NCBI GenBank assembly: GCA_026188615.1 | Contig: GCA_026188615.1_4525.1 | Length of the DNA: 64,000 bases | DNA from: a phage | Strand: one strand, 5' to 3' | In this document: positions 11,143 through 40,533 of the stretch, piece after piece | Layout of the letters: each line of letters opens with the position of its first letter | Numbering within the stretch: the first letter of the stretch is position 1 | Notes under the pieces: generated by a model | What the model was told of the DNA's origin: nothing | Database searches by the model: none | The model's input: only the letters and a program-made list of their open reading frames with translations | Translations under genes and position numbers: made by a program

Positions 11143-11713
11143 AAAAGTTTCGGATTTGTTCCCAATTCAGAGAACGAAGATTATTACGAGAGTACTGAAT
11201 TACTTCAATACCGGCTTGTTTTAGAATGTCTGCCCAATTTTCAGGAGATCTGTCATATAATTCTGCGTATACAACCTTTTTAATACCTGACTGTGTAATA
11301 GCTTTAGTGCAATCAGGACACGGAGAAAGCGTCGTATATAACGTAGCACCTTCAATAGAATTACCTTTACGAGCTGCAAACAAAATTGCATTCAATTCAG
11401 CATGGATTTCGTTATTAGCAGACCATGCACTATGAGCGGCCCGATGTTCTTTAGCCAAAACAAAATTATCCACCCGTCCAAATGCTGTAGTGCCTTCTTT
11501 ATGCCCAGCAACGATGACCGGGCTTGGTTTATTCTTCAACCAACCGTTTTCGGATGCATGTTCGCAACAGTTTGTACCACCTGAAGGAGAGCCATTATAA
11601 CCTGTAGAAATAATGCGTCCATCTTTTTCAATGACGGCGCCAACTTTCCATGAACAACATTTTGATTCTTGAGAAATCAGATATGCAATCTGAAGGTATG
11701 TGCTAGCTTTCAT
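11132..11713 (-). CDS. cd: dCMP deaminase
   Basis: 193 aa = T4 Cd length; zinc-binding deaminase motifs HAELNAI and SPCPDCTKAI. Confidence 0.9.
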   Translation of the reverse strand: MKASTYLQIAYLISQESKCCSWKVGAVIEKDGRIISTGYNGSPSGGTNCCEHASENGWLKNKPSPVIVAGHKEGTTAFGRVDNFVLAKEHRAAHSAWSANNEIHAELNAILFAARKGNSIEGATLYTTLSPCPDCTKAITQSGIKKVVYAELYDRSPENWADILKQAGIEVIQYSRNNLRSLNWEQIRNFCGE

Positions 11714-12705
11714 TATTGAACCTTATTAATATAAGTTAACAGCTCTTTAGTTTGTTCCCAACTGATGCACGCATCGGTAACGGAAACGCCATAGGACATA
11801 TTATCAGAAATTTTTTGATTTCCTTCATGTAGGAACGATTCTATCATAATTCCTTTGACCAAATCATTAGCTGCTAAATTTTTACCAATACCAATTTGAT
11901 TGCTATAATGCCCATCAGCGTTTGCATGGCTACAGTCAACCATTACATAATGATTCAGACCTACTGCCCTTGCTTTGTTAGAAGCTTCTTGAATATCAGA
12001 AGAATGATAGTTCGGGCCGTTGGTCCCGCCACGCAATACGATATGCGTATTCTGATTACCTTCAGCTTCAACAATGCCTACAGTACCATCGACGTCCATA
12101 CCCATATACCGATGAGGCCAGGCGGCACTATACATCGCGTCTGTAGCTACTTTAATAGAACCATTGGTTGCGTTCTTGAAGCCTACGCACATCGGTAGAC
12201 CTGAAGCAATTTCACGATGTGTCTGACTTTCAGTCGTACGGGCGCCAATAGCAACCCATGAGAAAATACCAGAAAGATACTTAATCGTGAATGGGTCTAA
12301 TACTTCAGTTGCTAATGGAAGTCCCATACGTAGAAGTTTACGACACAATGTTCGTGCAACTATAAGACCGTGGTTCATATCAAAACTTCCGTCAAGATAT
12401 GGATCATTTACAAGACCTTTCCAACCTACGGTAGTTCGAGGCTTTTCAAAATAAACGCGCATCACTAACAGAACATTAGGAAGACGAGTTTGAAGTTCAG
12501 CCAGGCGTTTGCCGTATTCAACAGCAGCAATAGGGTCATGAATTGAACAAGGACCTACAACGATAAGTTTGCGTGGGTCTTCACCATTCATAATCGAATT
12601 AACTTGTTCGCGATGAGAAGCCACTTGTGATGCGTAAGCTTCCGACAAAGGAATAATCTCAGCCAGTTCTTTTGGAGAAATAAGTTTTCCGACGACAGGT
12701 AACAT
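11713..12705 (-). CDS. 3-deoxy-D-arabino-heptulosonate-7-phosphate (DAHP) synthase, class I (AroG/AroF/AroH-like)
   Basis: 330 aa; long colinear matches to recalled E. coli AroG: GPCSIHD, MRVYFEKPRTTVGWKGL, GARTTESQ.HRE.ASGL, VGFKN, LRGG, ESFLHEGNQ, TDACI. Confidence 0.85.
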   Translation of the reverse strand: MLPVVGKLISPKELAEIIPLSEAYASQVASHREQVNSIMNGEDPRKLIVVGPCSIHDPIAAVEYGKRLAELQTRLPNVLLVMRVYFEKPRTTVGWKGLVNDPYLDGSFDMNHGLIVARTLCRKLLRMGLPLATEVLDPFTIKYLSGIFSWVAIGARTTESQTHREIASGLPMCVGFKNATNGSIKVATDAMYSAAWPHRYMGMDVDGTVGIVEAEGNQNTHIVLRGGTNGPNYHSSDIQEASNKARAVGLNHYVMVDCSHANADGHYSNQIGIGKNLAANDLVKGIMIESFLHEGNQKISDNMSYGVSVTDACISWEQTKELLTYINKVQ

Positions 12706-18271: not shown

Positions 18272-18772
18272 TTAGAAATATTTTTTGTATGAATTGATTA
18301 CATTTTGGTCTACATCATTATCAATTTGTGCGACAAGATAAGAACTGATTTCAACTTCCTGAGGAGCTGCTTGAACTAAATCAGAGTTCAGATATTCACG
18401 AATCCATGGAATAGGATGACGAGTTGATACGTCTTTAAGAGGACATGGCAGACCACAACTACGCATACGAGACACGGTAAGATAATCCACAAATTCACTT
18501 AGGATTTTAACATTTAGACCTGGAAGAGCACCATCTTTAAACAAGTGTTCAGCCCATTCTTTTTCTTGAGCGTTAACTTCCATGAAAATATCAACTGCTT
18601 CTTGTTCACACTCTTGAGCAATTTTGACCCATTCATCACCGTCTTCGCCATCTTGTAAAGCACGAATAATATATTGAGTGCCCTTAAGGTGGAGCTGTTC
18701 ATCACGAGCAATGAACTTCATAATCTTGGCATTACCTTCCATGATTTCCATGTTCTTATGGAAGTTAAAGGT
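18272..18772 (-). CDS. nrdB: ribonucleotide reductase small subunit NrdB, exon 2 (5' boundary approximate)
   Basis: Translation matches recalled E. coli NrdB region MEGNAKI..IARDE.LHL.GTQ...PIPWI...SYLV.QID; interrupted from exon 1 by ~1.1 kb intron. Confidence 0.8.
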   Translation of the reverse strand, partial: TFNFHKNMEIMEGNAKIMKFIARDEQLHLKGTQYIIRALQDGEDGDEWVKIAQECEQEAVDIFMEVNAQEKEWAEHLFKDGALPGLNVKILSEFVDYLTVSRMRSCGLPCPLKDVSTRHPIPWIREYLNSDLVQAAPQEVEISSYLVAQIDNDVDQNVINSYKKYF

Positions 18773-19865
18773 ACCGTATGTTCGATTGAGCTCGCTAATT
18801 CTCAACCCGTTCTCTTATGAACTGCTGCATGTTACCATGCAGTCCAGACTATATCACAATCCCGGAGGGATTCTCCCCATTTCGAGTCGCTTGACCCTAC
18901 GTCCGAAGACTAGTCGTTGAACCTTGCTTTGCAATTGTCGCCGTGCCATCGTTTATATGTTGATGGTGATAAATCTTTCTTATCACAATATGGACAATTC
19001 AATTGAATTCTATTTGGATTTAATTTACATCTGTCATTATGTTTTAGATAAAATCCAGGACCTTTACCAATGTGACCACAGAAATCACATGTGATTTCTT
19101 TTTGTGCAGGATGGGTCCCGTTCTTAACCATTTCTAATGTTTTTGCTGATGTTCTTTTCTTATGGTCTTCTGATAAGAAATGATGTGAACCGTCATTTAC
19201 CCGTTTTGATTGAGTTTCTGACTGCATTTTACCACCGCAAAATACATGAGTACCTTCTTTTATAGCTGCAATATTGCGTTCTTTAACTTTTGCAATATGC
19301 TCAGCTTGTTGAAAATTATGTATACCTAATGCAACTCTATTTAAATTAGATTTACGCTGTATTTCACCGTCTAAAAGATGAAATGTACCATTTTCTATCT
19401 TAGATTTAATAGAGGCAATATTTTTAGCTCGTACTTCAGGGATATTAAAAATCTGGATTTCTCTAGATTTTGCGGCTTTAGAAGCTAATTCAGAAATTTC
19501 TTCAGGAGAATATTTCATTCTAAGCTTTATAGCATGACAAGCCTGGTAATCTTTTTGAGCTAAATGTATATCATAATGTTCCTGTATAGAAAGGCACATC
19601 AAATTATCTAAATCATTATTTTCACGGTTACCGTCTTTATGATGGATTTCGTATGTTCTTCCATCAGAATCTTTAGGTATAGGTCCGTTAGCATCTATCC
19701 AAATTTTTCTATAGTTCAATTGTGCATCCTCTTAAAAGTATAATCATATTTATATTATACTAATTAAAGGTGCAAGCAAAACCTTGGCTGCTAGTTTTCC
19801 TATAAAGGACTTTCCAGCAATTAAAGGAGTTTTCGATAAACGTTACCGTTTAAAGGCGCATTTTA
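18773..19865 (-). mobile_element. group I self-splicing intron in nrdB carrying HNH homing endonuclease ORF (boundaries approximate)
   Basis: NrdB reading frame split into two ORFs; in-frame stop immediately after exon 1 (YVSFA-stop); intervening 269-aa HNH ORF; matches known T-even nrdB intron architecture. Confidence 0.75.
18910..19719 (-). CDS. I-TevIII: intron-encoded HNH homing endonuclease, I-TevIII-like (full length)
   Basis: 269 aa; HNH motif YEIHHKDGNRENNDLDNL near N-terminus, C-terminal Cys/His zinc-finger-like repeats. Confidence 0.8.
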   Translation of the reverse strand: MNYRKIWIDANGPIPKDSDGRTYEIHHKDGNRENNDLDNLMCLSIQEHYDIHLAQKDYQACHAIKLRMKYSPEEISELASKAAKSREIQIFNIPEVRAKNIASIKSKIENGTFHLLDGEIQRKSNLNRVALGIHNFQQAEHIAKVKERNIAAIKEGTHVFCGGKMQSETQSKRVNDGSHHFLSEDHKKRTSAKTLEMVKNGTHPAQKEITCDFCGHIGKGPGFYLKHNDRCKLNPNRIQLNCPYCDKKDLSPSTYKRWHGDNCKARFND

Positions 19866-20540
19866 CGCAAAAGATACATAAAAACGAATAGCTTCTAAGG
19901 CATTAATAACGTGCAAACAGAGGTAAAGAGACTTCATTAAAGCACGTTTAGCTTCGGCTTCTTGTTTAATAGCTCGGTTTAAACGAAAGTCGGCATCAGG
20001 AGATTCTTTAGCTAGTTCTACAAATTCCTTAGCGTTTTCCCAATAACGAGCTTTAACCAGAACATCATCATAATATCGTCCGATAGATTCGGCACGCTTC
20101 ATAATAGCTTCATCTAATACAATCTCATCAAACACCTTCGATGGATCTGTATAAAGATTTCGCATAATATGAGTATATGAACGAGAGTGAATAGTTTCAC
20201 TGAAAGTCCATGTAGCAACCCATGTATCTAATGAAGGGTCTGAAAGCAATGACATAAGTACCGCAGATGGTGCTCTACCTTGGATAGAATCTAATAATGA
20301 TTGATACTTAAGGTTGTTGGTAAAGATGTCCTGTTGGAACTGTGGAAGCTTATTAAACTGGGCCGAATCCAACATCAAGTTTACTTCCTCGGGACGCCAG
20401 AAAAAACTTAGCTGCCGCTCAATGAGTTCTTCAAAAACTTTATGACGCTGAATATCATAACGTGCGAGACCAAGACCAGAACCAAAGAACATTGGTTCGT
20501 TCAAAACATCGACTTGTTGTGTATTAAAAACTGTACTCAT
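19866..20540 (-). CDS. nrdB: ribonucleotide reductase small subunit NrdB, exon 1
   Basis: 225 aa N-terminal part ending ...EAIRFYVSFA as in recalled NrdB just before the intron. Confidence 0.8.
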
Positions 20541-21235
20541 TTAGAATCCTTAAATTTACATTTATCATAATGCCATCTTAGAGCATTGCCTTTATTAACT
20601 TTCTTGCCACAATGCGGACAAGGTGGATATTCAGTACTTTGCTTAGTTCTCAAAGAAATCAAATCACGAGTTTCTTTAGTATGAGGAACATCTCTTGTTG
20701 GAGATATTGTACCATACATAGGATTAAGCACACCTAGTTTAGCTTTTGCTATATTCTTTTTGGCTTCATCTGATTTAGGTTTTCTCATCTTTTTCTTAGT
20801 TTCTTCACTTTTAGCCCTTCCTTTGGTTGCCGCCGATATTTTGTGCTTGGTTTCTTCTGTTAAATGTAGGCCTGTTTTCGCTTTTGAAATTTTCAGTCTT
20901 GTTTCTTCAGAAATGACCATACCTTTGCGAAATTGTGAATTTAACTTCTTTGCATGGGCATATATTTTAGAATGAACTTTATAATGTCGTTTCTTGGTTC
21001 CTTTCATATTGCACATCATGAAAAATGCGAATATAACAGATTTTATCGGATAAATCTTTGATAAAATAGCATGTGCTATAAAATGCTCTCTAGCTGTTAA
21101 TTCAACTAAATTTTCTTTATCATCAGAACCTCCTAAACATCTAGGAACTATATGATGAGTCTCTTTATATTCGGATAAAGGTTCCCGAGCCTTAGCCCGG
21201 GAAATTAGGTCGTTATAGATTTTTTGATAATTCAT
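20537..21235 (-). CDS. mobE: free-standing HNH homing endonuclease, MobE-like
   Basis: 232 aa; HNH motif ETHHIVPRCLGGSDDKENLVELTAREH; repeated basic NUMOD-like K.SEETK..IS.A units; sits between nrdA and nrdB as mobE does in T4. Confidence 0.7.
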   Translation of the reverse strand: MNYQKIYNDLISRAKAREPLSEYKETHHIVPRCLGGSDDKENLVELTAREHFIAHAILSKIYPIKSVIFAFFMMCNMKGTKKRHYKVHSKIYAHAKKLNSQFRKGMVISEETRLKISKAKTGLHLTEETKHKISAATKGRAKSEETKKKMRKPKSDEAKKNIAKAKLGVLNPMYGTISPTRDVPHTKETRDLISLRTKQSTEYPPCPHCGKKVNKGNALRWHYDKCKFKDSK

Positions 21236-24707: not shown

Positions 24708-25665
<958 letters not shown>

Positions 25666-25947
25666 TCAAAACCCCTTTTCAATAAACCATTCAGTGGCTT
25701 TATTAGCGTCAAAGAATAACTCTTCATATGTCTTTTCTTTGTTTTCAAAAACTGTCACACAAACACGTTGACATTCTCCACAGTATTCTTCTGACATACT
25801 CAAAGCGTCAGAAAACATTTCATTAAATTCACTTAAATCGGGATTATGCAATGCGTTAAAAATTGCATAATCGAATTCGTCATTCATAAATTCAAATACA
25901 AAAATCATATTATTTTTCCTCAAACAGACTTTTTCACAATTTTCCAA
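25666..25947 (-). CDS. hypothetical small protein (frd.1 position)
   Basis: 93-aa ORF. Confidence 0.4.
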   Translation of the reverse strand: MENCEKVCLRKNNMIFVFEFMNDEFDYAIFNALHNPDLSEFNEMFSDALSMSEEYCGECQRVCVTVFENKEKTYEELFFDANKATEWFIEKGF

Positions 25948-29984: not shown

Positions 29985-29992
29985 TATAAATA
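29985..29992 (+). promoter_or_regulatory. T4 late promoter TATAAATA upstream of gene 34
   Basis: Exact TATAAATA ~35 nt upstream of gene 34 ATG. Confidence 0.6.
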
Positions 29993-30026: not shown

Positions 30027-33000
30027 ATGGTTGACATCAAACGTAAGTTCAGGGCCGAAGATGGTCTTGATGCAGGCGGTGATAAGATAGTTAACGTTGC
30101 GCTTGCCGACCGCACAGTTGGCACCGATGGCGTGAACGTTGACTTTTTGGTGCAAGAAAACACCGTACAGAATTATGATGATACGCGCGCGTATACAAAA
30201 GATTTTATTGTTCTTTATAATAATCGTTTTTATCAAGCTTTAAGCGATATTCCAGCTCCGGCAGGCCCTTTCTCTTTGGGTAAATGGAAGGCAACTCGTA
30301 CAGATGCAGATTGGATTACAGTTCAAGGCGGAGATTTCCAATTATCAGTAGGTAACTCTATTGCGGTTGATACTTCAGCTGGCACTGATATTAATTTCAC
30401 TTTGCCTCAAAATCCTTTAGATGGCGATACAGTTATTTTGTCTGATATTGGCGGTAGAGTAGGCTATGTAAAAGTTCAAATTACTGCAGCGGCTCAAAGT
30501 ATTGTAAACTTTAGAGGACAACAGGTTCGTTCAGTTTTAATGACGCACCCAAAATCTAAAATGGTCTTCATTTTTAGCAACCGCCTATGGCAAATGTATA
30601 TTTCTGATTATGAACGTAATGCAGTCACAGTAACTCCTGCTAAGCCGTATCAGGCGCAACCTAACGATTTTATCATTCGTCGTTTTACATCAGCCGCTCC
30701 TATTAATATTACATTGCCTCGCAATGCTAATAATGGCGATATTATTAATTTAGTTGATTTAGACAAATTAAACCCGTTATATCACACAATTGTCAAAACT
30801 TACGATGATACAACTTCTATACGAGAAGCTGGTGTTCATGTAGCAGAAGGACGTAATACTGCGGAAGCGTTCTTTGTTTATGATTCTGCTAATAGCTTAT
30901 GGCGTGTTTGGGAAGGTGACCAGAAATCTCGTTTACGTATAGTTCGTAATGATACTGATTTACGCCCTAATGAAGAAGTTCTTGTTTTTGGAACTGATAA
31001 TAATACAATCTCGACGGTAAATCTTACTTTGCCTACAGATATTTTGTCTGGCGATACTGTTAAAATATCGTTGAATTATATGCGTAAAGGGCAAACTGTA
31101 AAAATTAAAGCTGCTGAAGGCGATACAATTGCTAGCAGTATTTCTTTATTACAGTTCCCAAAACGTTCGGAGTATCCACCTGATGCACAATGGGTTTCTG
31201 TTAGTGAGCTGGAATTTAATGGTGATACTTCGTATGTACCTGTACTTGAGTTAGCTTATATAGAAGATTATTCATCTGAAACAAAATATTGGGTAGTTCA
31301 ACAAAACACCGTAACCGTCGAACGAGTCGATGCATCGAGCAATAACACTCGAGCTCGTTTAGGTGTTATTGCTCTTGCTTCTCAAGCGCAAGCAAATGTT
31401 GATTTAGAAAATGCTCCTGGTAAAGAACTGGCTATTACTCCGGAAACATTAGCAAATCGTACAGCAACTGAAACTCGTCGTGGTATTGCTCGTATTGCAA
31501 CAACTGCACAAGTTAACCAGAATACCGATTTTGCATTCCAGGATGATTTGATTATTTCTCCTAAGAAATTGAATGAACGTACAGCAACTGAAACCCGTAG
31601 AGGTGTTGCTGAAGTTGCAACTCAGACTGAAACTAATGCTGGCACAGATGATACCACTATTATTACTCCTAAGAAATTGGATGCCCGTCAAGGTTCTGAA
31701 GTTTTATCTGGTATTGTAAAATACACATCTACGACTGGTACTACAGCTGCTACTATTCGTGGTAATGCTGGGACTAACGTTTATAACAAAGCCGTAGATA
31801 ATTTAACTATTTCTCCAAAGGCTCTTGACCAGTATAAAGCTACCCCTACTCAACAGGGCTCAGTAATTCTTGCTATTGAAAGCGAAGTTATCGCTGGCGA
31901 ATCACAAGCTGGTTGGGCTAATGCTGTAGTGACCCCTGAAACTCTGCATAAGAAAACTTCTACTGATGGACGTATTGGTTTAATTGAAATTGCTACGCAA
32001 GCAGAAACTAACACTGGAACTGATTATACTAGAGCAGTAACGCCTAAGACGTTAAATGATAGGAAAGCTACGGAAGGATTATCTGGCATAGCCGAACTTG
32101 CTACGCAAGTTGAATTTGATACTGGAACTGATGATACTCGTATCTCGACTCCACTGAAAATTAAAACTCATTTTGATTCTTCTGACCGTACCAGTGTTAA
32201 TTCTGATTCCGGACTTATTGAAGAAGGAACCTTGTGGAACCATTATACTCTTGATATTTCTAAAGCAAATGAAACACAACGCGGTACACTTCGCGTAGCG
32301 ACCCAGGCAGAATCTAATGCAGGAACTTTAGATGATGTTCTTATTACTCCTAAAAAGCTTTTAGGGACTAAGTCCACTGAAACATCTGAAGGTGTAATTA
32401 AGGTTGCTACTCAGGCTGAAACTGTAACAGGAACTTCTGCTAATACTGCTGTATCACCTAAGAATTTAAAATGGATTGTTCAATCAGAACCATCATGGAC
32501 TGCTACTACGGCAATTCGTGGATTCGTTAAAACTTCATCTGGTTCTATTACATTTGTCGGTGACGATACTCAAGGTAATACCCAGGATTTGAATCTTTAT
32601 GAGAAAAATAGTTATGCTATTTCTCCATATGAATTAAACCGTGTACTTGCTAACTACTTACCGTTGAAAGCTAAAGCAGCTGATAGTAATTTGTTAGATG
32701 GTCTAGATTCTCTTCAGTTCATCCGTAGAGACATCGACCAGACGGTTAATGGTTCTTTAAGTCTTACTAAACAGACCAACCTGAGTGCTCCTTTAGTATC
32801 TACAAGCACTGCTTCTTTTGGTTCCGAAGCATCTGTTACTCGTAGATTAACTCTTAATGACTCTAGCGGTTCCGAAATAATTTTCACTAAAGGAACCCAA
32901 TCTCTTAGTAATAAAGAGAATTTCGTTGTTAGAGCATGGGGTAATAGCGCTACAGATGGTGCCCGTGATACAGTATTTGAAGCGGGTGACGAAACCGGAT

Positions 33001-33860
33001 ACCATTTCTATTCTCAGCGCGCTGCTGATAATAAAGTATCATTTAATATTAATGGAACACTTTATTCAACAGGTATTGTTTCTACAAATGGATTAAATGT
33101 TACGGGTGTTTCTACCTTTACCGGGCCTATTAGTGCTACAGGCGAAATTGTTTCTAGTTCTCCTATTGCATTCAGAGCTATTAACGGTAACTATGGTGTT
33201 ATGCTTTATAATGCTGGTAACAGTTCTTATATTGCATTAACTAACTCAGGTGACCAGACCGGGACGTTTAATAACTTACGCCCGATCACGATTAACAACG
33301 CCACAGGCTTAGTTCGTCTTGACAATGGTGTTCAAATCACAAGTGGTGCAACAATAACTACCGGCGGGTTAACTGTAAATAACAGAATTATTTCTAACGG
33401 CGTTAAAACTGCCACGGTTTATACCGATAAACCAACAGCTTCTACTGTAGGTTTTTGGTCTATTGACATTAACGATTCTGCTGTATATAGCCAATTCCCT
33501 GGATACTGGACGCGTGATAACAAAGGTAACCGTGACCAAGAAATTAAATATCCTGGTACTTTGACTCAATTCGGCAATAGCTTAGATTCGCTTTATCAGG
33601 ATTGGATTTGTTATCCTACGGGTGCAAATGGTGGTAGTATTCGTTATACTCGTACCTGGCAGAAAAATAAAGATGCTTGGACTTCATTTGCAATGGTATT
33701 TGATAGTGGCAACCCACCTTCACCTAGCGATGTCGGTGCTATCCCATCTGATAATGCTGTTATTGGAAACCTTACTGTTCGAGACTTCTTACAATTAGGA
33801 AATGTGAGAATTGTTCCAGACCCGGTTAACAAAACAGTTAAATTTATATGGGTTGAATAA
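30027..33860 (+). CDS. 34: long tail fibre proximal subunit gp34
   Basis: 1277 aa; colinear with recalled T4 gp34 over most of its length (e.g. RTATETRRGIARIATTAQVNQNT, PGTLTQFGN.LDSLYQDWI.YPT). Confidence 0.95.
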   Translation: MVDIKRKFRAEDGLDAGGDKIVNVALADRTVGTDGVNVDFLVQENTVQNYDDTRAYTKDFIVLYNNRFYQALSDIPAPAGPFSLGKWKATRTDADWITVQGGDFQLSVGNSIAVDTSAGTDINFTLPQNPLDGDTVILSDIGGRVGYVKVQITAAAQSIVNFRGQQVRSVLMTHPKSKMVFIFSNRLWQMYISDYERNAVTVTPAKPYQAQPNDFIIRRFTSAAPINITLPRNANNGDIINLVDLDKLNPLYHTIVKTYDDTTSIREAGVHVAEGRNTAEAFFVYDSANSLWRVWEGDQKSRLRIVRNDTDLRPNEEVLVFGTDNNTISTVNLTLPTDILSGDTVKISLNYMRKGQTVKIKAAEGDTIASSISLLQFPKRSEYPPDAQWVSVSELEFNGDTSYVPVLELAYIEDYSSETKYWVVQQNTVTVERVDASSNNTRARLGVIALASQAQANVDLENAPGKELAITPETLANRTATETRRGIARIATTAQVNQNTDFAFQDDLIISPKKLNERTATETRRGVAEVATQTETNAGTDDTTIITPKKLDARQGSEVLSGIVKYTSTTGTTAATIRGNAGTNVYNKAVDNLTISPKALDQYKATPTQQGSVILAIESEVIAGESQAGWANAVVTPETLHKKTSTDGRIGLIEIATQAETNTGTDYTRAVTPKTLNDRKATEGLSGIAELATQVEFDTGTDDTRISTPLKIKTHFDSSDRTSVNSDSGLIEEGTLWNHYTLDISKANETQRGTLRVATQAESNAGTLDDVLITPKKLLGTKSTETSEGVIKVATQAETVTGTSANTAVSPKNLKWIVQSEPSWTATTAIRGFVKTSSGSITFVGDDTQGNTQDLNLYEKNSYAISPYELNRVLANYLPLKAKAADSNLLDGLDSLQFIRRDIDQTVNGSLSLTKQTNLSAPLVSTSTASFGSEASVTRRLTLNDSSGSEIIFTKGTQSLSNKENFVVRAWGNSATDGARDTVFEAGDETGYHFYSQRAADNKVSFNINGTLYSTGIVSTNGLNVTGVSTFTGPISATGEIVSSSPIAFRAINGNYGVMLYNAGNSSYIALTNSGDQTGTFNNLRPITINNATGLVRLDNGVQITSGATITTGGLTVNNRIISNGVKTATVYTDKPTASTVGFWSIDINDSAVYSQFPGYWTRDNKGNRDQEIKYPGTLTQFGNSLDSLYQDWICYPTGANGGSIRYTRTWQKNKDAWTSFAMVFDSGNPPSPSDVGAIPSDNAVIGNLTVRDFLQLGNVRIVPDPVNKTVKFIWVE

Positions 33861-33868
33861 GAGGTTAT

Positions 33869-34993
33869 ATGGAAAAATTTATGGCAAGGTTTGGACAGGG
33901 ATACGTCCAAACGCCGTTTTTATCGGAAAGCAATTCAGTTAGATTTAAGCTAAGTATAGCGGGTTCATGCCCGCTTTCAACAACTAATCCGTATATTTTG
34001 TTCCAAAACGAGCCTTTAGGGTTGCAGTCTTTTGGTATTGGACTAAATGTTAGGGTGATAAATCCGGAAAATGGAACTATAGTTGATAGTAAATTATACA
34101 ATTTTGCGCCTACAAATAATGCAACTTCAGCTGCATTTATTTCGTTTGTTAATACATACGCAGATAATTTCATTTTCGCATTTATTTCTAATAACAAATT
34201 TAATTTGCCACCGGAAATAATTGAATGGTTTAAAGCTGCTGGGAGTTCAGTTATACCGTCAATTGAAGTTGCTAGTCTTGTTGATATTTCATATTCAGCG
34301 TTTTATGTTTCAGGTAAAAATACTATTGCATTAGAACACATAAAATACAGTAATAAGAAAACAATTTCTGATTACGCAACTCCATTAGATATTGTATATG
34401 ACTCTATTGCTGATATAGGTGCTACCGGCTATCCTAGACGTACATATGAAGCTCTAGAAACGTTTTTATCTCCTGTTGGAGGAACTAACAATGAAATAAA
34501 AAGGATGCCTACGTCATCCCTTGTTACTCCTATCGCAAACTATGGATTAAAGCCTACAGATTTTCTTTATTTGAAATTTCAATTAATGGCTGATGAAGAA
34601 TTATTAGAGGAAGGAACCACAAGACTTTCAATTCGTTTCTTTAAGTCTCCATCTAGCTCTCCTATATCATCTAAAGATATAAACTTTGATGGAACTGCCC
34701 GGGAGTGGAAGCTATATGAAGAATACGTTGAAATACCGGCTGAAGCTGATGGCTTTACAGTATATTGTTACCGTACAGCCTCAGTCGGTCAAGGTGGACT
34801 AAGAAATGTTATTTTCACTGAAGTATCATGTAACGGAAGTATAGCAAAACCCGCCGAGTTTGGTATAAACGGTATTCGTGTTAATTACATTGATGAATCA
34901 TTAACCGGTAATGATATAATGGACTTGCCTACTCAGTTATCTAACGACACAGGTAAGGTATTTGGGCAGGAATTTAAAGAGTACACAGAATAA
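33869..34993 (+). CDS. 35: long tail fibre hinge connector gp35
   Basis: 374 aa (T4 gp35 372); position between 34 and 36. Confidence 0.85.
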   Translation: MEKFMARFGQGYVQTPFLSESNSVRFKLSIAGSCPLSTTNPYILFQNEPLGLQSFGIGLNVRVINPENGTIVDSKLYNFAPTNNATSAAFISFVNTYADNFIFAFISNNKFNLPPEIIEWFKAAGSSVIPSIEVASLVDISYSAFYVSGKNTIALEHIKYSNKKTISDYATPLDIVYDSIADIGATGYPRRTYEALETFLSPVGGTNNEIKRMPTSSLVTPIANYGLKPTDFLYLKFQLMADEELLEEGTTRLSIRFFKSPSSSPISSKDINFDGTAREWKLYEEYVEIPAEADGFTVYCYRTASVGQGGLRNVIFTEVSCNGSIAKPAEFGINGIRVNYIDESLTGNDIMDLPTQLSNDTGKVFGQEFKEYTE

Positions 34994-34994
34994 A

Positions 34995-35010
34995 GGAGAC
35001 TTCGGTCTCC
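34995..35010 (+). terminator. intrinsic terminator hairpin GGAGAC-UUCG-GUCUCC plus UUUU after gene 35
   Basis: Perfect 6-bp stem, TTCG loop, TTTT tail on plus strand. Confidence 0.6.
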
Positions 35011-35018
35011 TTTTCGCG

Positions 35019-35026
35019 TATAAATA
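35019..35026 (+). promoter_or_regulatory. T4 late promoter TATAAATA upstream of gene 36
   Basis: Exact TATAAATA ~27 nt upstream of gene 36 ATG. Confidence 0.6.
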
Positions 35027-35052: not shown

Positions 35053-35709
35053 ATGGCCGATTTAAAAGCCGGAAGTACAGTTGGTGGTTCCGTCATATGG
35101 CATCAAGGCAATTTTCCTTTAATGCCAGCTGGCGATGACATCCTATATAAAACATTTAAATTATACACCGAATATAACAAGCCAAAAGCGGCTGATAACG
35201 ATTTCGTATCTAAAGCAAATGGTGGGACATATCTCAAAAAGGTAATCTTTAACGAAGGTGTTGCAGTCAAAACAGCAGATGACCAAACGAATGGCATTTT
35301 TTCTGGTGGTGGTGACGCCGCGACATTCGACCAAACAAACATGGATATTGTTTCGTGGTATGGTATTGGGTTTAAATCATCTCAAGGTACAGGTGAAAGA
35401 ACTGTTGTAATTGATACTCGCACCGGTAATATAAGTTCTAAAGGCGTTATTGAAGCATCTCAATTCAGAGCCACAACGTTAGCACCTTTAAATAATTACG
35501 ACCTTACTCGCAAAGATTATGTTGATAGTCAAATAAATACAGTTAATGCTAATGCAAACAGTCGTGTACTCCGTTCAGGAGATACGATGACCGGCGCGCT
35601 AACCGCCCCAAACTTTTTCTCACAGAATCCTGCATCTCAACCCTCGCATGTTCCACGATTTGACCAAATTGTTATTAAGGATTCTGTTCAAGATTTCGGC
35701 TATTATTAA
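35053..35709 (+). CDS. 36: long tail fibre distal connector gp36
   Basis: 218 aa (T4 gp36 221); position between 35 and 37. Confidence 0.85.
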   Translation: MADLKAGSTVGGSVIWHQGNFPLMPAGDDILYKTFKLYTEYNKPKAADNDFVSKANGGTYLKKVIFNEGVAVKTADDQTNGIFSGGGDAATFDQTNMDIVSWYGIGFKSSQGTGERTVVIDTRTGNISSKGVIEASQFRATTLAPLNNYDLTRKDYVDSQINTVNANANSRVLRSGDTMTGALTAPNFFSQNPASQPSHVPRFDQIVIKDSVQDFGYY

Positions 35710-35717
35710 GAGGACTT

Positions 35718-38700
35718 ATGGCTACTTTAAAACAAATACAATTTAAAAGAAGCAAAACTGCAGGAGCACGTCCTGCCGCTTCAGTATTAGCCGAAGGTGA
35801 ATTGGCTATAAACTTAAAAGACCGTGTACTTTTTACTAAAGATGACCAAGGAAATATTATTGATCTGGGTTTTGCTAAAGGTGGTAGTATTGACGGGAAT
35901 GTTATTCATACTGGCAATTATAACCAAACTGGCGATTATACTTTAAATGGCACCTTCACTCAGACAGGTGATTTTAATTTAACCGGTATTGCTCGAGTAA
36001 CTCGTGATATTATTGCCGCTGGGCAGATTACGACTGAAGGCGGAGAACTTATTACAAAAAGTTCAGGTACAGCACATGTTCGTTTTCATGATTCGGCTGA
36101 TCGTGAACGTGGCATTATTTATTCACCGGCTAATGATGGATTAACTACGCAAGTAGTTAATATCCGCGTTAAAGACTACGCCGCTGGTGATGAAAGCACC
36201 TATGCATTTTCGGGCAGTGGACTATTTACTTCACCTGAAGTATCAGCATGGAAATCTATGTCAACTCCTCAGATTTTGACAAATAGAGTTATTACTAATA
36301 ATAAATCTACGAGTGATTATGACATTTATTCTATGGCAGACAACGTTCCATTGTCTGAAAGCACTACTGCTATTAATCATCTCCGTGTTATGCGCAATGC
36401 TGTAGGCGCTGGTGTATTCCATGAAGTTAAAGATAATGATGGAATAACTTGGTATACTGGAGATGGCTTAGACACTTATCTTTGGTCGTTTACCTGGTCC
36501 GGTGGATTGAAAGCTGGTCATTCTATTTCTGTTGGTACTCCTGGTGGCAATAAAGGATACTCTGAATTAGGGACTGCTTCAATTTCTCTTGGCGATAATT
36601 ATACCGGGCTAAAATGGCATCAGGATGGATATTTTTTTACGGTAAACAACGGTACAAAAACTTTCCTTTCTGGTCCGGCGGAAACCACTAGCCTTAGAAA
36701 AATGGTTATGGGTTATTCTGTAAATGGTACTGATTTGACTACTCCTCCAACTGAAAACTATGCTCTTGCTACTGTTGTGACATATCACGATAATAACGCG
36801 TTTGGAGATGGTCAGACTCTTTTGGGATATTATCAAGGCGGTAATTATCATCACTATTTCCGTGGTAAGGGTACCACAAACATTAATACTCATGGTGGTT
36901 TGTTGGTTACTCCAGGTAATATTGATGTTATTGGCGGTTCTGTTAATATAGATGGTAGAAATAATTCTTCTACACTAATGTTTAGAGGCAACACAACAGG
37001 ATACAGCTCGGTTGATAATATGGATATTAAAGTTTGGGGTAATACGTTTGTTGATCCAAGCGGAGGTATCCGTAAAAACATTATGGAAATTTCTGATGCA
37101 ACTAGCTGGATGAGCTATATTCAAAGACTTACTACTGGCGAAGTAGAAATGAACGTTAATGGTTCATTTGAATCATCTGGTGTTACTGCTGGAGATAGAG
37201 GAGTTCACACAACAGGTGAAATTTCATCCGGAGCAGTGAATGCTCTTCGTATTTGGAACGCAGATTATGGAGCCATTTTTAGACGTTCAGAAGGAAGTCT
37301 TCATATTATTCCAACTGCTTATGGCGAAGGCAAAGATGGCGATATCGGTCCACTTCGCCCGTTTAGTATGGCTTTAGATACCGGTAAAGTTACTATTCCA
37401 GATTTACAATCGAGCTACAATACGTTCGCTGCTAACGGTTATATTAAATTTGTTGGTCATGGCGCTGCCGCAGGTGGATATGATATTCAATATGCCCAAG
37501 CGGCTCCTATTTTCCAGGAAATTGATGATGATGCTGTAAGCAAATATTATCCTATTGTTAAACAGAAGTTTTTAAATGGTAAAGCCGTTTGGTCTTTAGG
37601 TACTGAAATTAATTCGGGTACATTTGTTTTACACCATATCAAAGAAGATGGATCACAAGGACATACATCTCGTTTTAATCAAGACGGCACAGTTAATTTC
37701 CCTGATAATGTTCAGGTTGGTGGTGGTGAAGCTACTATTGCTCGCAACGGTAACATCTGGTCTGATATCTGGAAAACGTTTACTTCAGCAGGAGACACCA
37801 CAAATATTCGCGATGCAATAGCTACCCGTGTTTCTAAAGAAGGCGACACGATGACCGGCCGCTTAACCCTTAAAACCAACTCAGATGCTGTTGTTATCGA
37901 TTATCCGGCAGATGAAGCGGGTTATGTTAAGGGTAAAAAAGGTGGTGTTGATAACTGGTATGTAGGTAATGGTGGTGCTGATAACGGTTTAGCTTTCTGG
38001 AGCTTCCAATCCCAAGGTGGTATTAATATCAACCCGAACGGTGAAGTTATTCTGGCGCCGCAAGGTGTTGCAATAGTCAATATAAACCGCGACCGTATTC
38101 ATATGAATGGTTCCAACTGGATTGCACATAAATCTGGCGCATGGGGCGACCAATGGGGCTTAGAAGCACCTTATTTCCTTGATTTTGGTAGCGTTGGCGA
38201 AGACAGTTATTATCCTATCATTAAAGGCAGATCTGTAATTAGTGGTCAAGGATATACTACTTCTGTTGACCTTGGTATTAGACGTACACCTCAAGCATGG
38301 GGACAAGCGATAATTCGAGTTGGTAATGCCGGAGGCGCTGACGGTCCTGTGGGTATTTTTGAATTCCATTCGTCTGGACTATTCTATAGCCCTAATATGG
38401 TTCAAACTCCGGCAATTGGTGTTGGTACTGCTAATGGACTTGGTGCTCCAAGTATTGCAATCGGTGATAATGACACGGGCTTATCACATGGTGGTGATGG
38501 TCGAATTAACATGGTTGCCAATGGTATACATATTGCAAACTGGGGAGCAGGCTATCAATCTCATCCTGGGCTTTGGGATTCAACTGGTGCTTTTTGGACA
38601 GAAACCGGAAGAGCTATCGTTTCTCATGGCCATTTAGTTCAGGCGAATGACAGCTATTCAACGTTTGTCCGTGATGTTTATGTCCGCTCTGATATTCGTG

Positions 38701-39023
38701 TTAAAAAGAACCTCGTTAAATTTGAAAATGCTTCTCAGAAGCTTTCTAAAATTAACGGTTACACTTATATGCAGAAACGTGGAACAGATGAAGAAGGTAA
38801 TCAGAAATGGGAACCTAACGCTGGTTTGATAGCTCAAGAAGTTCAAGCTATTTTACCAGAATTAGTTGAAGGCGACCCGGATGGTGAATCTTTACTTCGT
38901 TTAAACTATAACGGTGTAATTGGTTTAAATACAGCTGCAATCAATGAGCATACCGCAGAAATTGCAGAACTTAAGTCAGAGATTGAAGAGCTTAAAAAAT
39001 TAGTTAAATCATTGTTAAAATAA
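35718..39023 (+). CDS. 37: long tail fibre distal subunit gp37, T2-type with C-terminal intramolecular chaperone (peptidase S74-like) domain
   Basis: 1101 aa; C-terminal ~110 aa show S74 hallmarks SDIRVKKN...GYTYMQK...[13 protein letters not shown]...LNYNGVIGL; followed by gp38 adhesin. Confidence 0.9.
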
Positions 39024-39026
39024 TAA

Positions 39027-39044
39027 GAGGGGCTTCGGCCTCTT
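39027..39044 (+). other. RNA hairpin with UUCG loop between genes 37 and 38 (no U-run; likely not a full terminator)
   Basis: GAGGGGC-TTCG-GCCTCTT stem-loop immediately before gene 38 RBS. Confidence 0.35.
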
Positions 39045-39054
39045 GGAGGTTTAT

Positions 39055-39828
39055 ATGGCAGTTGAAGGACCGTGGGTAGGATGGTCTGCAAGGGTACAGA
39101 CTGGAGATCCTTGGATGGGTGGTGCCGCACAGAGATTGAGAATGGGAATTCCGTTTTGGATGAGTAATATGATAGGACGATCTGTTGAAGTAATTCACAC
39201 ACTTGGAGCAGACCATAACTTCAATGGTCAATGGTTCCGAGATAGATGTTTTGAAGCCGGCGGTGCTCCTATAGTGTTTAATATCACAGGCAACTTAGTA
39301 TCATATAGTAAAGATGTTCCATTATTCTTTATGTATGGCGATACGCCAAACGAATATGTTACTTTGAATATTCATGGTGGAGTTCATATGTGGGGACGAG
39401 GTGGTAACGGTACTGTAAACGGAAACCCAGGCACAAATGGCGGCGATGTAATCCAAAATGATATCGGCGGAAGACTTCGTATTTGGAACTATGGCGTTAT
39501 TGCATCAGGCGGTGGTGGTGGTGGTGCAGTGTCATTACAGAATAGCTGGGCGCCAAATGCTACAGCAGGTGGCGGTGGTGGTAGACCATTTGGCCTCGGC
39601 GGCGGTGGCGTTAATTGGCCGGGTGGTAATGCTAGTTATGACGCCCCGGGCGGTGCCGGTTACACTTCCCAATTCGGCGGAGGCAATGGTGGTGATGCTG
39701 GAGGTCGGGGCGGAGATGGATGGGGTAATCACTTATCTAGATCTGGCGGTGGTGCTCCTGGCAGAGCAGTATTCGGAAGTTCACCGTCATGGGGTGCTAC
39801 AGGCACAATCTACGGCTCCTGGATTTAA
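39055..39828 (+). CDS. 38: gp38 receptor-binding adhesin, T2-type with glycine-rich motifs
   Basis: ~257 aa from Met with GGAGG RBS; conserved N-terminal blocks [54 protein letters not shown]; multiple poly-Gly runs. Confidence 0.85.
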
Positions 39829-39846: not shown

Positions 39847-39854
39847 TATAAATA
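39847..39854 (+). promoter_or_regulatory. T4 late promoter TATAAATA upstream of holin gene t
   Basis: Exact TATAAATA ~20 nt upstream of t ATG. Confidence 0.6.
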
Positions 39855-39873
39855 TTGATAAATGGGAGGTAAT

Positions 39874-40533
39874 ATGGCAGCACCAAAAGTATCATTTTCG
39901 CCTAGTGATATTTTATTTGGGTTGCTAGACCGCATTTTCAAAGATAACGCCTCTGGAAATATTCTTATTTCCAGAGTTGCTGTTGTAGTTCTTTTGTTCC
40001 TAATGGCACTAATATGGTACAAAGGGAATATTTTTATGGATTATTACGTGAGGTCGAAATATGATACTTACACAGAAGTAATTCAAAAAGAAAGAAATAC
40101 ACGATTTGAATCTGCGGCTTTAGAACAACTACAAATAGTCCACGTCACATCAAGGGCGGATTTTAGTTCGGTGTATTCTTTCAGACCTAAAAATCTAAAT
40201 TATTTCGTCGACCTTATTGCGTATGAAGGTAAGTTACCTAGCACAGTAACTGAAAAATCTATGGGAGGATTTCCTGTCGATAAAACGACAGCAGAATATT
40301 CGGTCCATTTAAGTGGACTTCACTTTACTTCTAAAACAGATTTTGCTTTCTTACCTACCAAATCAAAAACTCCGGAACTGGCATATATGTATAGTTGTCC
40401 TTACTTCAATTTGGATAACATATATGCTGGAACTGTTTCTATGTATTGGTATAAGGGGTCAGATGTGTTAAATGAAGAACGCTTGGCCGCAATATGCAAC
40501 CAAGCTGCAAGGATATTAGGGCGGGCTAAATAA
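39874..40533 (+). CDS. t: holin T (class III holin, RI target)
   Basis: ~219 aa from MAAPK start; near-colinear with recalled T4 T (SFSPSDILFG.LDR.FKDNA, YSFRPKNLNYFVD.IAYEGKLPST, YMYSCPYFNLDNIYAGT, AARILGRAK). Confidence 0.95.
   Translation: MAAPKVSFSPSDILFGLLDRIFKDNASGNILISRVAVVVLLFLMALIWYKGNIFMDYYVRSKYDTYTEVIQKERNTRFESAALEQLQIVHVTSRADFSSVYSFRPKNLNYFVDLIAYEGKLPSTVTEKSMGGFPVDKTTAEYSVHLSGLHFTSKTDFAFLPTKSKTPELAYMYSCPYFNLDNIYAGTVSMYWYKGSDVLNEERLAAICNQAARILGRAK

Follow-up and report, generated by a model that had tools for sequence, protein, structure and literature searches.

A T2-type receptor-recognition module, in which the distal tail-fibre subunit gp37 carries a cleavable C-terminal chaperone domain and gp38 acts as the adhesin, is the best explanation for positions 38688-39828 (+ strand) of a 64,000-nucleotide (nt) stretch of phage DNA (GenBank assembly GCA_026188615.1, contig GCA_026188615.1_4525.1), referred to here as the window. 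The stretch begins with the first base of the Ser991 codon of gp37 and ends with the last base of the g38 stop codon. It forms the distal end of the long-tail-fibre operon and is arranged as in the phages T2, T6 and S16, unlike T4, an explanation that as a whole carries a probability of about 0.93. The module is a textbook example of its type, almost identical to that of phage RB69 and hence already known. Gene order, family memberships, conserved catalytic and docking residues, the layout of motifs and variable segments and the near-identity to RB69 were all observed directly. In a megablast comparison over 20 kb, the window shows ~96% nucleotide identity to RB69, the LF82-x phages and FL31, and it belongs to an RB69-like Mosigvirus of the RB69 group of T-even phages.

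On the model of homologous systems, gp37 would be synthesised with a 111-residue C-terminal intramolecular chaperone of the Peptidase_S74 family that nucleates both the trimerisation of the beta-helical fibre and its folding. The chaperone would then remove itself through autoproteolysis at Arg990/Ser991, catalysed by Ser991 and Lys996. A single gp38 molecule would cap the bared trimeric gp37 tip, docking through W7, W20 and W35 of its N-terminal helical domain, and the variable loops of a polyglycine-II sandwich at the far end of gp38 would bind the outer-membrane receptor. Cleavage, the 3:1 gp37:gp38 stoichiometry, the location in the virion and the receptor are expected from homologues with solved structures and from genetics.

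The C-terminal chaperone domain of gp37

The g37 gene (35718-39023 including the stop codon, + strand) is an open reading frame (ORF) encoding 1101 amino acids (aa), and its homologues in RB69 and LF82-1 are annotated as 'long tail fiber protein distal subunit'. The intramolecular chaperone domain comprises aa 991-1101, that is 111 aa and the stop codon (38688-39023, + strand), in good agreement with an earlier note on this DNA that had described a tail of ~110 aa with S74 hallmarks. The Peptidase_S74 profile (PF13884), which Pfam describes as 'chaperone of endosialidase', matches this domain with an E value of 1.5e-12 and 48 bits (gathering score 22) over profile positions 1-57 of 58. Its core spans aa 991-1050, and the remaining ~50 residues reach the C-terminus. 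As is characteristic of the S74 family, the domain lies at the extreme C-terminus of the protein and has at its very start a Lys five residues after a Ser (S-D-x-R-x-K). All four of the motifs quoted in the earlier note, including SDIRVKKN (aa 991-998) and LNYNGVIGL, are present.

Alignment with relatives points to Ser991 and Lys996, the ends of the SDIRVK motif (38688-38705, + strand), as the predicted Ser-Lys catalytic dyad. Ser991, Asp992, Arg994 and Lys996 are invariant in an alignment of six phages (that of the window, RB69, LF82-1, T2, T6 and S16). In S16, the last 113 residues of gp37 act as an intramolecular chaperone. Autocleavage at DLNVS^SDRRIKK removes it and bares the docking surface for gp38 (PMC7917993, citing Dunne 2018 for the cleavage site). 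In T2 and T6, the gp37 C-terminus is removed by proteolysis, after which the tip is capped by gp38 (PMC3157838). The corresponding sequence of the window, DVYVR^SDIRVKK, aligns with the S16 cleavage site, so that the processing previously suggested at the Ser of SDIRVKKN falls at a position used by a relative. Taken together, the S74 match, the conserved SD.R.K motif and the S16 site predict autocleavage between Arg990 and Ser991, with a mature gp37 of aa 1-990 and a freed chaperone of aa 991-1101.

Structural comparisons extend this similarity. The last 207 residues of gp37 match S16 gp37 (PDB 6F45_A, E 4e-46), with aa 907-990 aligning with its beta-helical tip, and also match the auto-processing domain of MYRF weakly. 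A profile of the chaperone domain from five phages matches 6F45_A (E 6e-52), the MYRF auto-processing domain (7DC3, E 4e-10), a tail fibre (8JOV, E 1e-7) and the appendage chaperone of phage GA-1 (3GUD, E 0.002). The 3GUD chain, which is the crystallised released GA-1 chaperone domain, starts at the aligned SDERHK.

The case for cleavage comes from homology, and the S74-like tail could instead be a degenerate, non-cleaving remnant that is kept on mature gp37. This is very unlikely given that the four residues of the motif are intact and invariant across distant relatives and that docking of S16 gp38 needs the surface exposed by cleavage (PMC7917993). The domain is also strongly constrained: 151 phage records share it at 95-99% identity, and it differs from RB69 and LF82-1 by 3-4 substitutions in 111 aa, the three differences from RB69 being Q1007E, T1023L and S1058A.

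Identity and architecture of the gp38 adhesin

The g38 gene (39055-39828 including the stop codon, + strand) encodes a T2-type tail-fibre adhesin of 257 aa, as defined by its ORF and profile matches. The ORF caller had placed its start at a TTG at 39043. The true start is the ATG at 39055, because all 22 homologues begin with MAV or MAI.G and a ribosome-binding site, GGAGG (39045-39049, + strand), can be read in the sequence 5 nt before this ATG. The GP38 family profile (PF05268) covers the protein at positions 1-218 of 218 (E 5.4e-83; 278.6 bits, cut-off 25), and Gp38_N (PF21721) matches aa 1-40 at positions 1-40 of 40 (E 6.5e-20, 71.3 bits). Among solved structures, gp38 matches S16 gp38 end to end (PDB 6F45_D, E 2.7e-48) and PP01 gp38 over aa 37-256 (PDB 9V85_A, E 1.1e-73). 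As is typical of the adhesins, it is encoded directly downstream of a gp37 with a chaperone domain.

In the alternative, T4-type arrangement, gp38 would be an assembly chaperone absent from the virion and the gp37 tip itself would bind the receptor. The original GenBank record of RB69 does call gp38 a 'distal long tail fiber assembly catalyst', a label carried over from T4, and the RefSeq note for RB69 names the T2-subfamily gp38 as the adhesin. The Pfam profile scan of the window's gp38 returned no match to the T4 gp38 family, while the full-length matches to both adhesin families and to the solved adhesins 6F45_D and 9V85 identify the protein as the T2 type, as had been proposed earlier. Moreover, gp37 ends in an S74 chaperone and not in a T4-type receptor-binding needle. 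The adhesin-family matches of gp38 and the S74 end of gp37 led to rejection of the T4-type arrangement, which is now exceedingly improbable.

The architecture of the adhesin was resolved in an alignment of 22 gp38 sequences that include T2, T6, S16, RB69, LF82-1 and 16 IMG/VR loci. The N-terminal attachment domain, which the earlier note had regarded as conserved, corresponds to the Gp38_N match at aa 1-40 (39055-39174, + strand) and contains Trp7, Trp20 and Trp35, all three invariant both in this alignment and in that of the six phages. In S16, three conserved Trp residues of gp38 plug into pockets of the trimeric gp37 tip (PMC6851490).

The specificity region follows at aa 114-236 (39394-39762, + strand), where the 22-sequence alignment shows the expected alternation of Gly-rich motifs and variable segments. 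Gly makes up 26% of gp38 overall and 37.5% of aa 114-241, and its codons raise the GC content locally to a peak of 0.56 (39400-39799). The conserved Gly blocks occupy aa 114-119, 129-130, 152-157, 172-183 (172-176, 180 and 183), 210-220 and 232-236. Column entropy is 0.3-0.9 bits in the Gly blocks and 1.7-2.4 bits in four variable segments, which also carry insertions and deletions (indels). These values delimit the hypervariable segments that an alignment with T2, T6, S16 and other adhesins had been proposed to reveal.

Segment 1 (aa 120-127, TVNGNPGT; 39412-39435, + strand) has an entropy of 1.69 bits for aa 121-130, with an insertion of up to 9 aa in relatives. Segment 2 (aa 158-170; 39526-39564, + strand) reaches the maximum of the protein, 2.36 bits for aa 161-170. 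Segment 3 (aa 181-209; 39595-39681, + strand) shows 1.3-2.0 bits and has indels after aa 187 and 203, and segment 4 (aa 220-231; 39712-39747, + strand) has 2.23 bits for aa 221-230 and indels after aa 223, 225 and 231. The C-terminus (aa 237-257; 39763-39825, + strand) is conserved in both alignments. A238, V239, G241, P244, W246, G250, I252 and G254 are invariant among the six phages; most remain so among the 22 sequences, the rest being conserved in at least 80%.

This layout resembles the five glycine-rich motifs and four hypervariable segments described for T2-type gp38 by Trojet et al. (PMC3157838). The specificity region aligns with the receptor-binding domains of S16 and PP01, and the S16 crystal structure contains a polyglycine-II sandwich with distal receptor-binding loops (PMC6851490); the roles of the sandwich and the loops are also treated elsewhere (PMC12892980). 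By homology, the specificity region of the window's gp38 probably forms such a sandwich. The coordinates of the four variable segments provide candidate targets for host-range engineering.

Variation and selection at the locus

The earlier note had ranked this locus first among candidate sites of diversifying selection in the window, a proposal that holds only in part. The variable segments of gp38 do differ strongly across the wider family, but gp38 is nearly invariant among the nearest relatives. Gene-wise ratios of non-synonymous to synonymous substitution (dN/dS; Nei-Gojobori method) were computed for every window ORF common to RB69 and LF82-1, and no gene in this set exceeds 1. The ratio for gp38 is 0.03 against RB69 and 0.08 against LF82-1, and that for gp37 is 0.12-0.21; these are pairwise averages, with which site-specific positive selection in the gp38 loops would still be compatible. 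The chaperone domain and gp38 are under strong purifying selection, and the gp38 segments are hypervariable only across the wider family.

The peak of divergence also does not lie where it had been placed. The chaperone domain holds only the few substitutions mentioned above, and the divergent block is found upstream, at gp37 aa ~700-980. Some non-structural genes of the window, namely frd and the nrdB exons, diverge more than the fibre locus. At the depth of RB69 and LF82-1, the host-range locus is a hot spot whose hot part is situated just upstream of the module itself.

Among close relatives, no part of the locus varies more than the distal shaft and tip of gp37 (aa 700-990; 37815-38687, + strand), a portion that would end in the surface where gp38 docks after cleavage. 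Across phages, only 11 records reach at least 95% identity over aa 700-990, and 372 of 489 fall below 60%. Overall, gp37 is 87% identical to its RB69 counterpart (1103 aa) and 94% identical to that of LF82-1. These averages conceal marked differences between blocks. Over aa 701-953 (the 37815-38660 block), amino acid identity is 50-74% to RB69 (56-77% at the nucleotide level) and 94-100% to LF82-1. In aa 101-350 (36018-36767), the relationship is reversed, with 96-100% identity to RB69 over aa 101-300 and 74-96% to LF82-1, and aa 301-350 are ~80% identical to both. Because synonymous divergence is also near saturation in the divergent blocks (with nucleotide identity of 56-67% in the distal one), these are attributed to mosaic recombination rather than to diversification by point mutation. 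Recombinational mosaicism is a familiar behaviour of T-even distal fibre genes.

Among RB69-like phages, gp38 is 97-99% identical while the gp37 shaft falls to 50-74%. This could mean that the element swapped in this group is the gp37 distal shaft (aa ~700-980) and not gp38, and that the shaft has a host-range function of its own, an idea that is doubtful at present. If it were true, the shaft could touch a second surface component, such as the lipopolysaccharide (LPS) core or FhuA. Recognition of the gp37 distal shaft as the variable part is of use for comparisons of host range within Mosigvirus.

Predicted receptor

RB69 is reported to need OmpF plus FhuA and the full LPS core (PMC3157838), and gp38 proteins that are closely related to each other recognise one and the same receptor (PMC12032242). 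The window's gp38 is 99.2% identical to that of RB69, with two differences in 257 aa, G70S and L181I. The first lies in the conserved body of the protein and the second is conservative, at a motif border; the variable segments are the same as those of RB69. The identity of the variable loops leads to the prediction that the receptor is that of RB69, namely OmpF, with FhuA and a complete LPS core also needed.

This picture has its limits. The exact sequence of the locus was absent from the phage collection searched, where the best match had 95% nucleotide identity. In FL31, a related Mosigvirus, dependence on OmpF and TolC was no more than weak (1-log; PMC12032242), which makes the RB69-like receptor the softest step of the analysis. 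In addition, the gp37 tip that bears gp38 is the part that diverges from RB69 over aa 701-953, and therefore whole-fibre behaviour of RB69, such as FhuA and LPS dependence, may not transfer. Nothing was found that contradicts a T2-type module.

The divergence of the gp37 shaft and the FL31 result could indicate that the module works as described but that its receptor differs from that of RB69, with specificity altered either by the two substitutions in gp38 or by the shaft (aa 700-980), all the more since RB69-type phages require several surface components (PMC3157838). The unchanged variable segments, the nature of the two substitutions and the shared receptor of close gp38 relatives (PMC12032242) speak for an RB69-like receptor, and a different one, although a genuine possibility, is unlikely. 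For annotation, the value of the analysis is that the host-range determinant is marked and that the C-terminus of mature gp37 (Arg990) and an RB69-like receptor are predicted.

Operon organisation and RNA signals

The long-tail-fibre operon of the window is located on the + strand in the order g34-g35-g36-g37-g38-t-asiA, as in RB69. The ORF list places g34 at 30027-33860, g35 at 33869-34993 and g36 at 35053-35709 (all + strand). The t holin gene lies downstream of g38, with asiA beyond it on the opposite strand. The listed t ORF (39862-40533, + strand) begins at an ATG at 39862, and the sequence GGGAGGTAATATG suggests that the true start is at 39874 (MAAPKVSF...). In LF82-1, the gene is annotated in the shorter form of 660 nt and in RB69 as 672 nt. 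In gp35, the proximal hinge connector, aa 58-131 (34040-34261, + strand) match the Pfam ILEI domain (interleukin-like EMT inducer/FAM3) just above threshold (30.2 bits, cut-off 27; E 6.5e-7).

A motif scan found TATAAATA, a T4-type late-promoter core, upstream of g36 (35019-35026, + strand) and also just upstream of g34 (29985-29992) and t (39847-39854), both on the + strand. The number of such motifs in the window is not above chance, with 7 found and 7.5 expected, and their placement alone is suggestive. The cores before g34, g36 and t suggest that g36-g37-g38 may be expressed as one late transcript starting at TATAAATA 35019-35026.

The gap between the g37 stop and the g38 ATG is 31 nt. It contains a predicted intercistronic hairpin of the C(UUCG)G type, GAGGGGC-UUCG-GCCUCUU (39027-39044, + strand), which follows the g37 stop (TAATAA, 39021-39026), precedes the Shine-Dalgarno sequence of g38 and has no U-tract. 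An Rfam scan of the whole window at the gathering threshold returned no match, this hairpin included. Folding of 39010-39075 (66 nt) gives a stable local hairpin, but the segment is no more stable than its shuffled versions (z -0.85). What supports the hairpin is thus its recurrence in other phages: 22 of 23 T2-type loci (RB69, LF82-1, T2, T6, S16 and 16 of 17 IMG/VR loci) have a predicted GC-rich hairpin at the g37-g38 junction, and the start of the sole exception (L022) had been set wrongly when the locus was extracted. Stem sequences vary between loci yet compensate, as in GGGGC/GCCCC, GAGCC/GGCUC and GGGCC/GGCCC. The hairpin might protect the mRNA, or it might keep g38 expression below that of g37, as would suit a 3:1 stoichiometry. 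A second hairpin with a UUCG loop, AAAGGAGAC-UUCG-GUCUCCUUU (34992-35013, + strand), overlaps the g35 stop and lies just before the late-promoter motif of g36.

Other features of the window

The nrdB gene (18272-20540, - strand) is interrupted, with its two exons as separate ORFs (19863-20540 and 18272-18751). Its intervening sequence contains an Rfam group I intron match at 18825-19065 that is below threshold (36 bits against 50, E 3e-7) and a 229-aa ORF (18910-19599) that matches phrog_12324, 'intron-like DNA endonuclease' (E 4.5e-163), of the I-TevIII type. The intervening segment shares 99% identity with RB3 and JK45, both Tequatrovirus phages. Neither RB69 nor LF82-1 has a match to the endonuclease ORF, and the annotation of both gives nrdB as a single, uninterrupted gene. 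Divergence of the exons from RB69 is unusually high (63% and 87% amino acid identity), as expected for co-conversion after intron homing. Between nrdB and nrdA lies a free-standing HNH + NUMOD3 homing-endonuclease ORF (20537-21235, - strand), which is absent from RB69 and 62% identical to the LF82-1 counterpart at the same place.

An auxiliary metabolic gene (11713-12705, - strand) adjoins cd and encodes a 330-aa phospho-2-dehydro-3-deoxyheptonate aldolase (DAHP synthase). LF82-1 has a 100% identical copy of this gene, and RB69 has none. Amino acid identity to RB69 and LF82-1 is only ~58% for the dihydrofolate reductase gene (25045-25662, - strand). On either side of it lies a small ORF that neither phage has, 24708-25055 (phrog_1928) and 25666-25908 (phrog_3183), and the region 24708-25908 (- strand) looks like a replaced cassette.

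Comparison with known systems

Modules of this kind have been studied genetically since the 1980s in T2, T6 and Ox2 and structurally since 2018 in S16 and then PP01, and the discovery value of the present example is small. The closest known system is that of RB69 (gp37/gp38, NP_861944 and NP_861945; genus Mosigvirus), which has the gene order, flanking genes, intergenic hairpin and Shine-Dalgarno sequence in common with the window. It differs in the gp37 aa 701-953 block, where the window instead resembles the LF82-x phages, making gp37 a mosaic.

The Salmonella phage S16 (PDB 6F45; Dunne et al. 2018) offers the structural model, with a trimeric gp37 tip and an autocleaved C-terminal chaperone whose cleavage motif aligns with that of the window. 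Its gp38 is monomeric and combines a beta-helix and a polyglycine-II sandwich with three Trp residues for docking, an architecture that the sequence match predicts for the window's protein. In contrast, the two gp38 proteins are only ~45-49% identical and have different variable loops, and the S16 receptor is Salmonella OmpC. S16 gp37 is also only 749 aa long, and ahead of the cleavage site the tip of the window's gp37 is longer by ~20 residues, spread over two insertions. The best solved-structure match is the receptor-binding domain of PP01 gp38 (PDB 9V85; PMC12892980), which has the same beta-helix and Gly-rich framework. The loops beyond aa ~200 diverge, however, and the PP01 receptor is O157 OmpC.

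T2 and T6 share the removal of the gp37 C-terminus and the gp38 cap (PMC3157838), and the SD.R.K motif and the Trp residues are conserved in the window. Identity to the window is lower for these phages, at 48% (T2) and 62% (T6) for gp38 and 30-35% for the chaperone domain, and the variable segments are unrelated. The receptors also differ, with T6 recognising Tsx and T2 OmpF/FadL.

T4 shares with the window the position in the operon and gp34-gp36, the proximal parts of the fibre. T4 gp38, an unrelated chaperone, is left out of the virion, and T4 gp37 has its own receptor-binding tip and lacks an S74 domain. The endosialidase and tailspike-type chaperones (Peptidase S74: K1F endosialidase, GA-1 gp12 (3GUD) and MYRF) belong to the same Pfam family as the gp37 domain and likewise have a Ser-Lys dyad at the start of a domain that is C-terminal on a trimeric beta-helical fibre. 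Unlike in those systems, the cleaved end in the window would serve as the platform for a separate adhesin and not merely as the end of a fibre.

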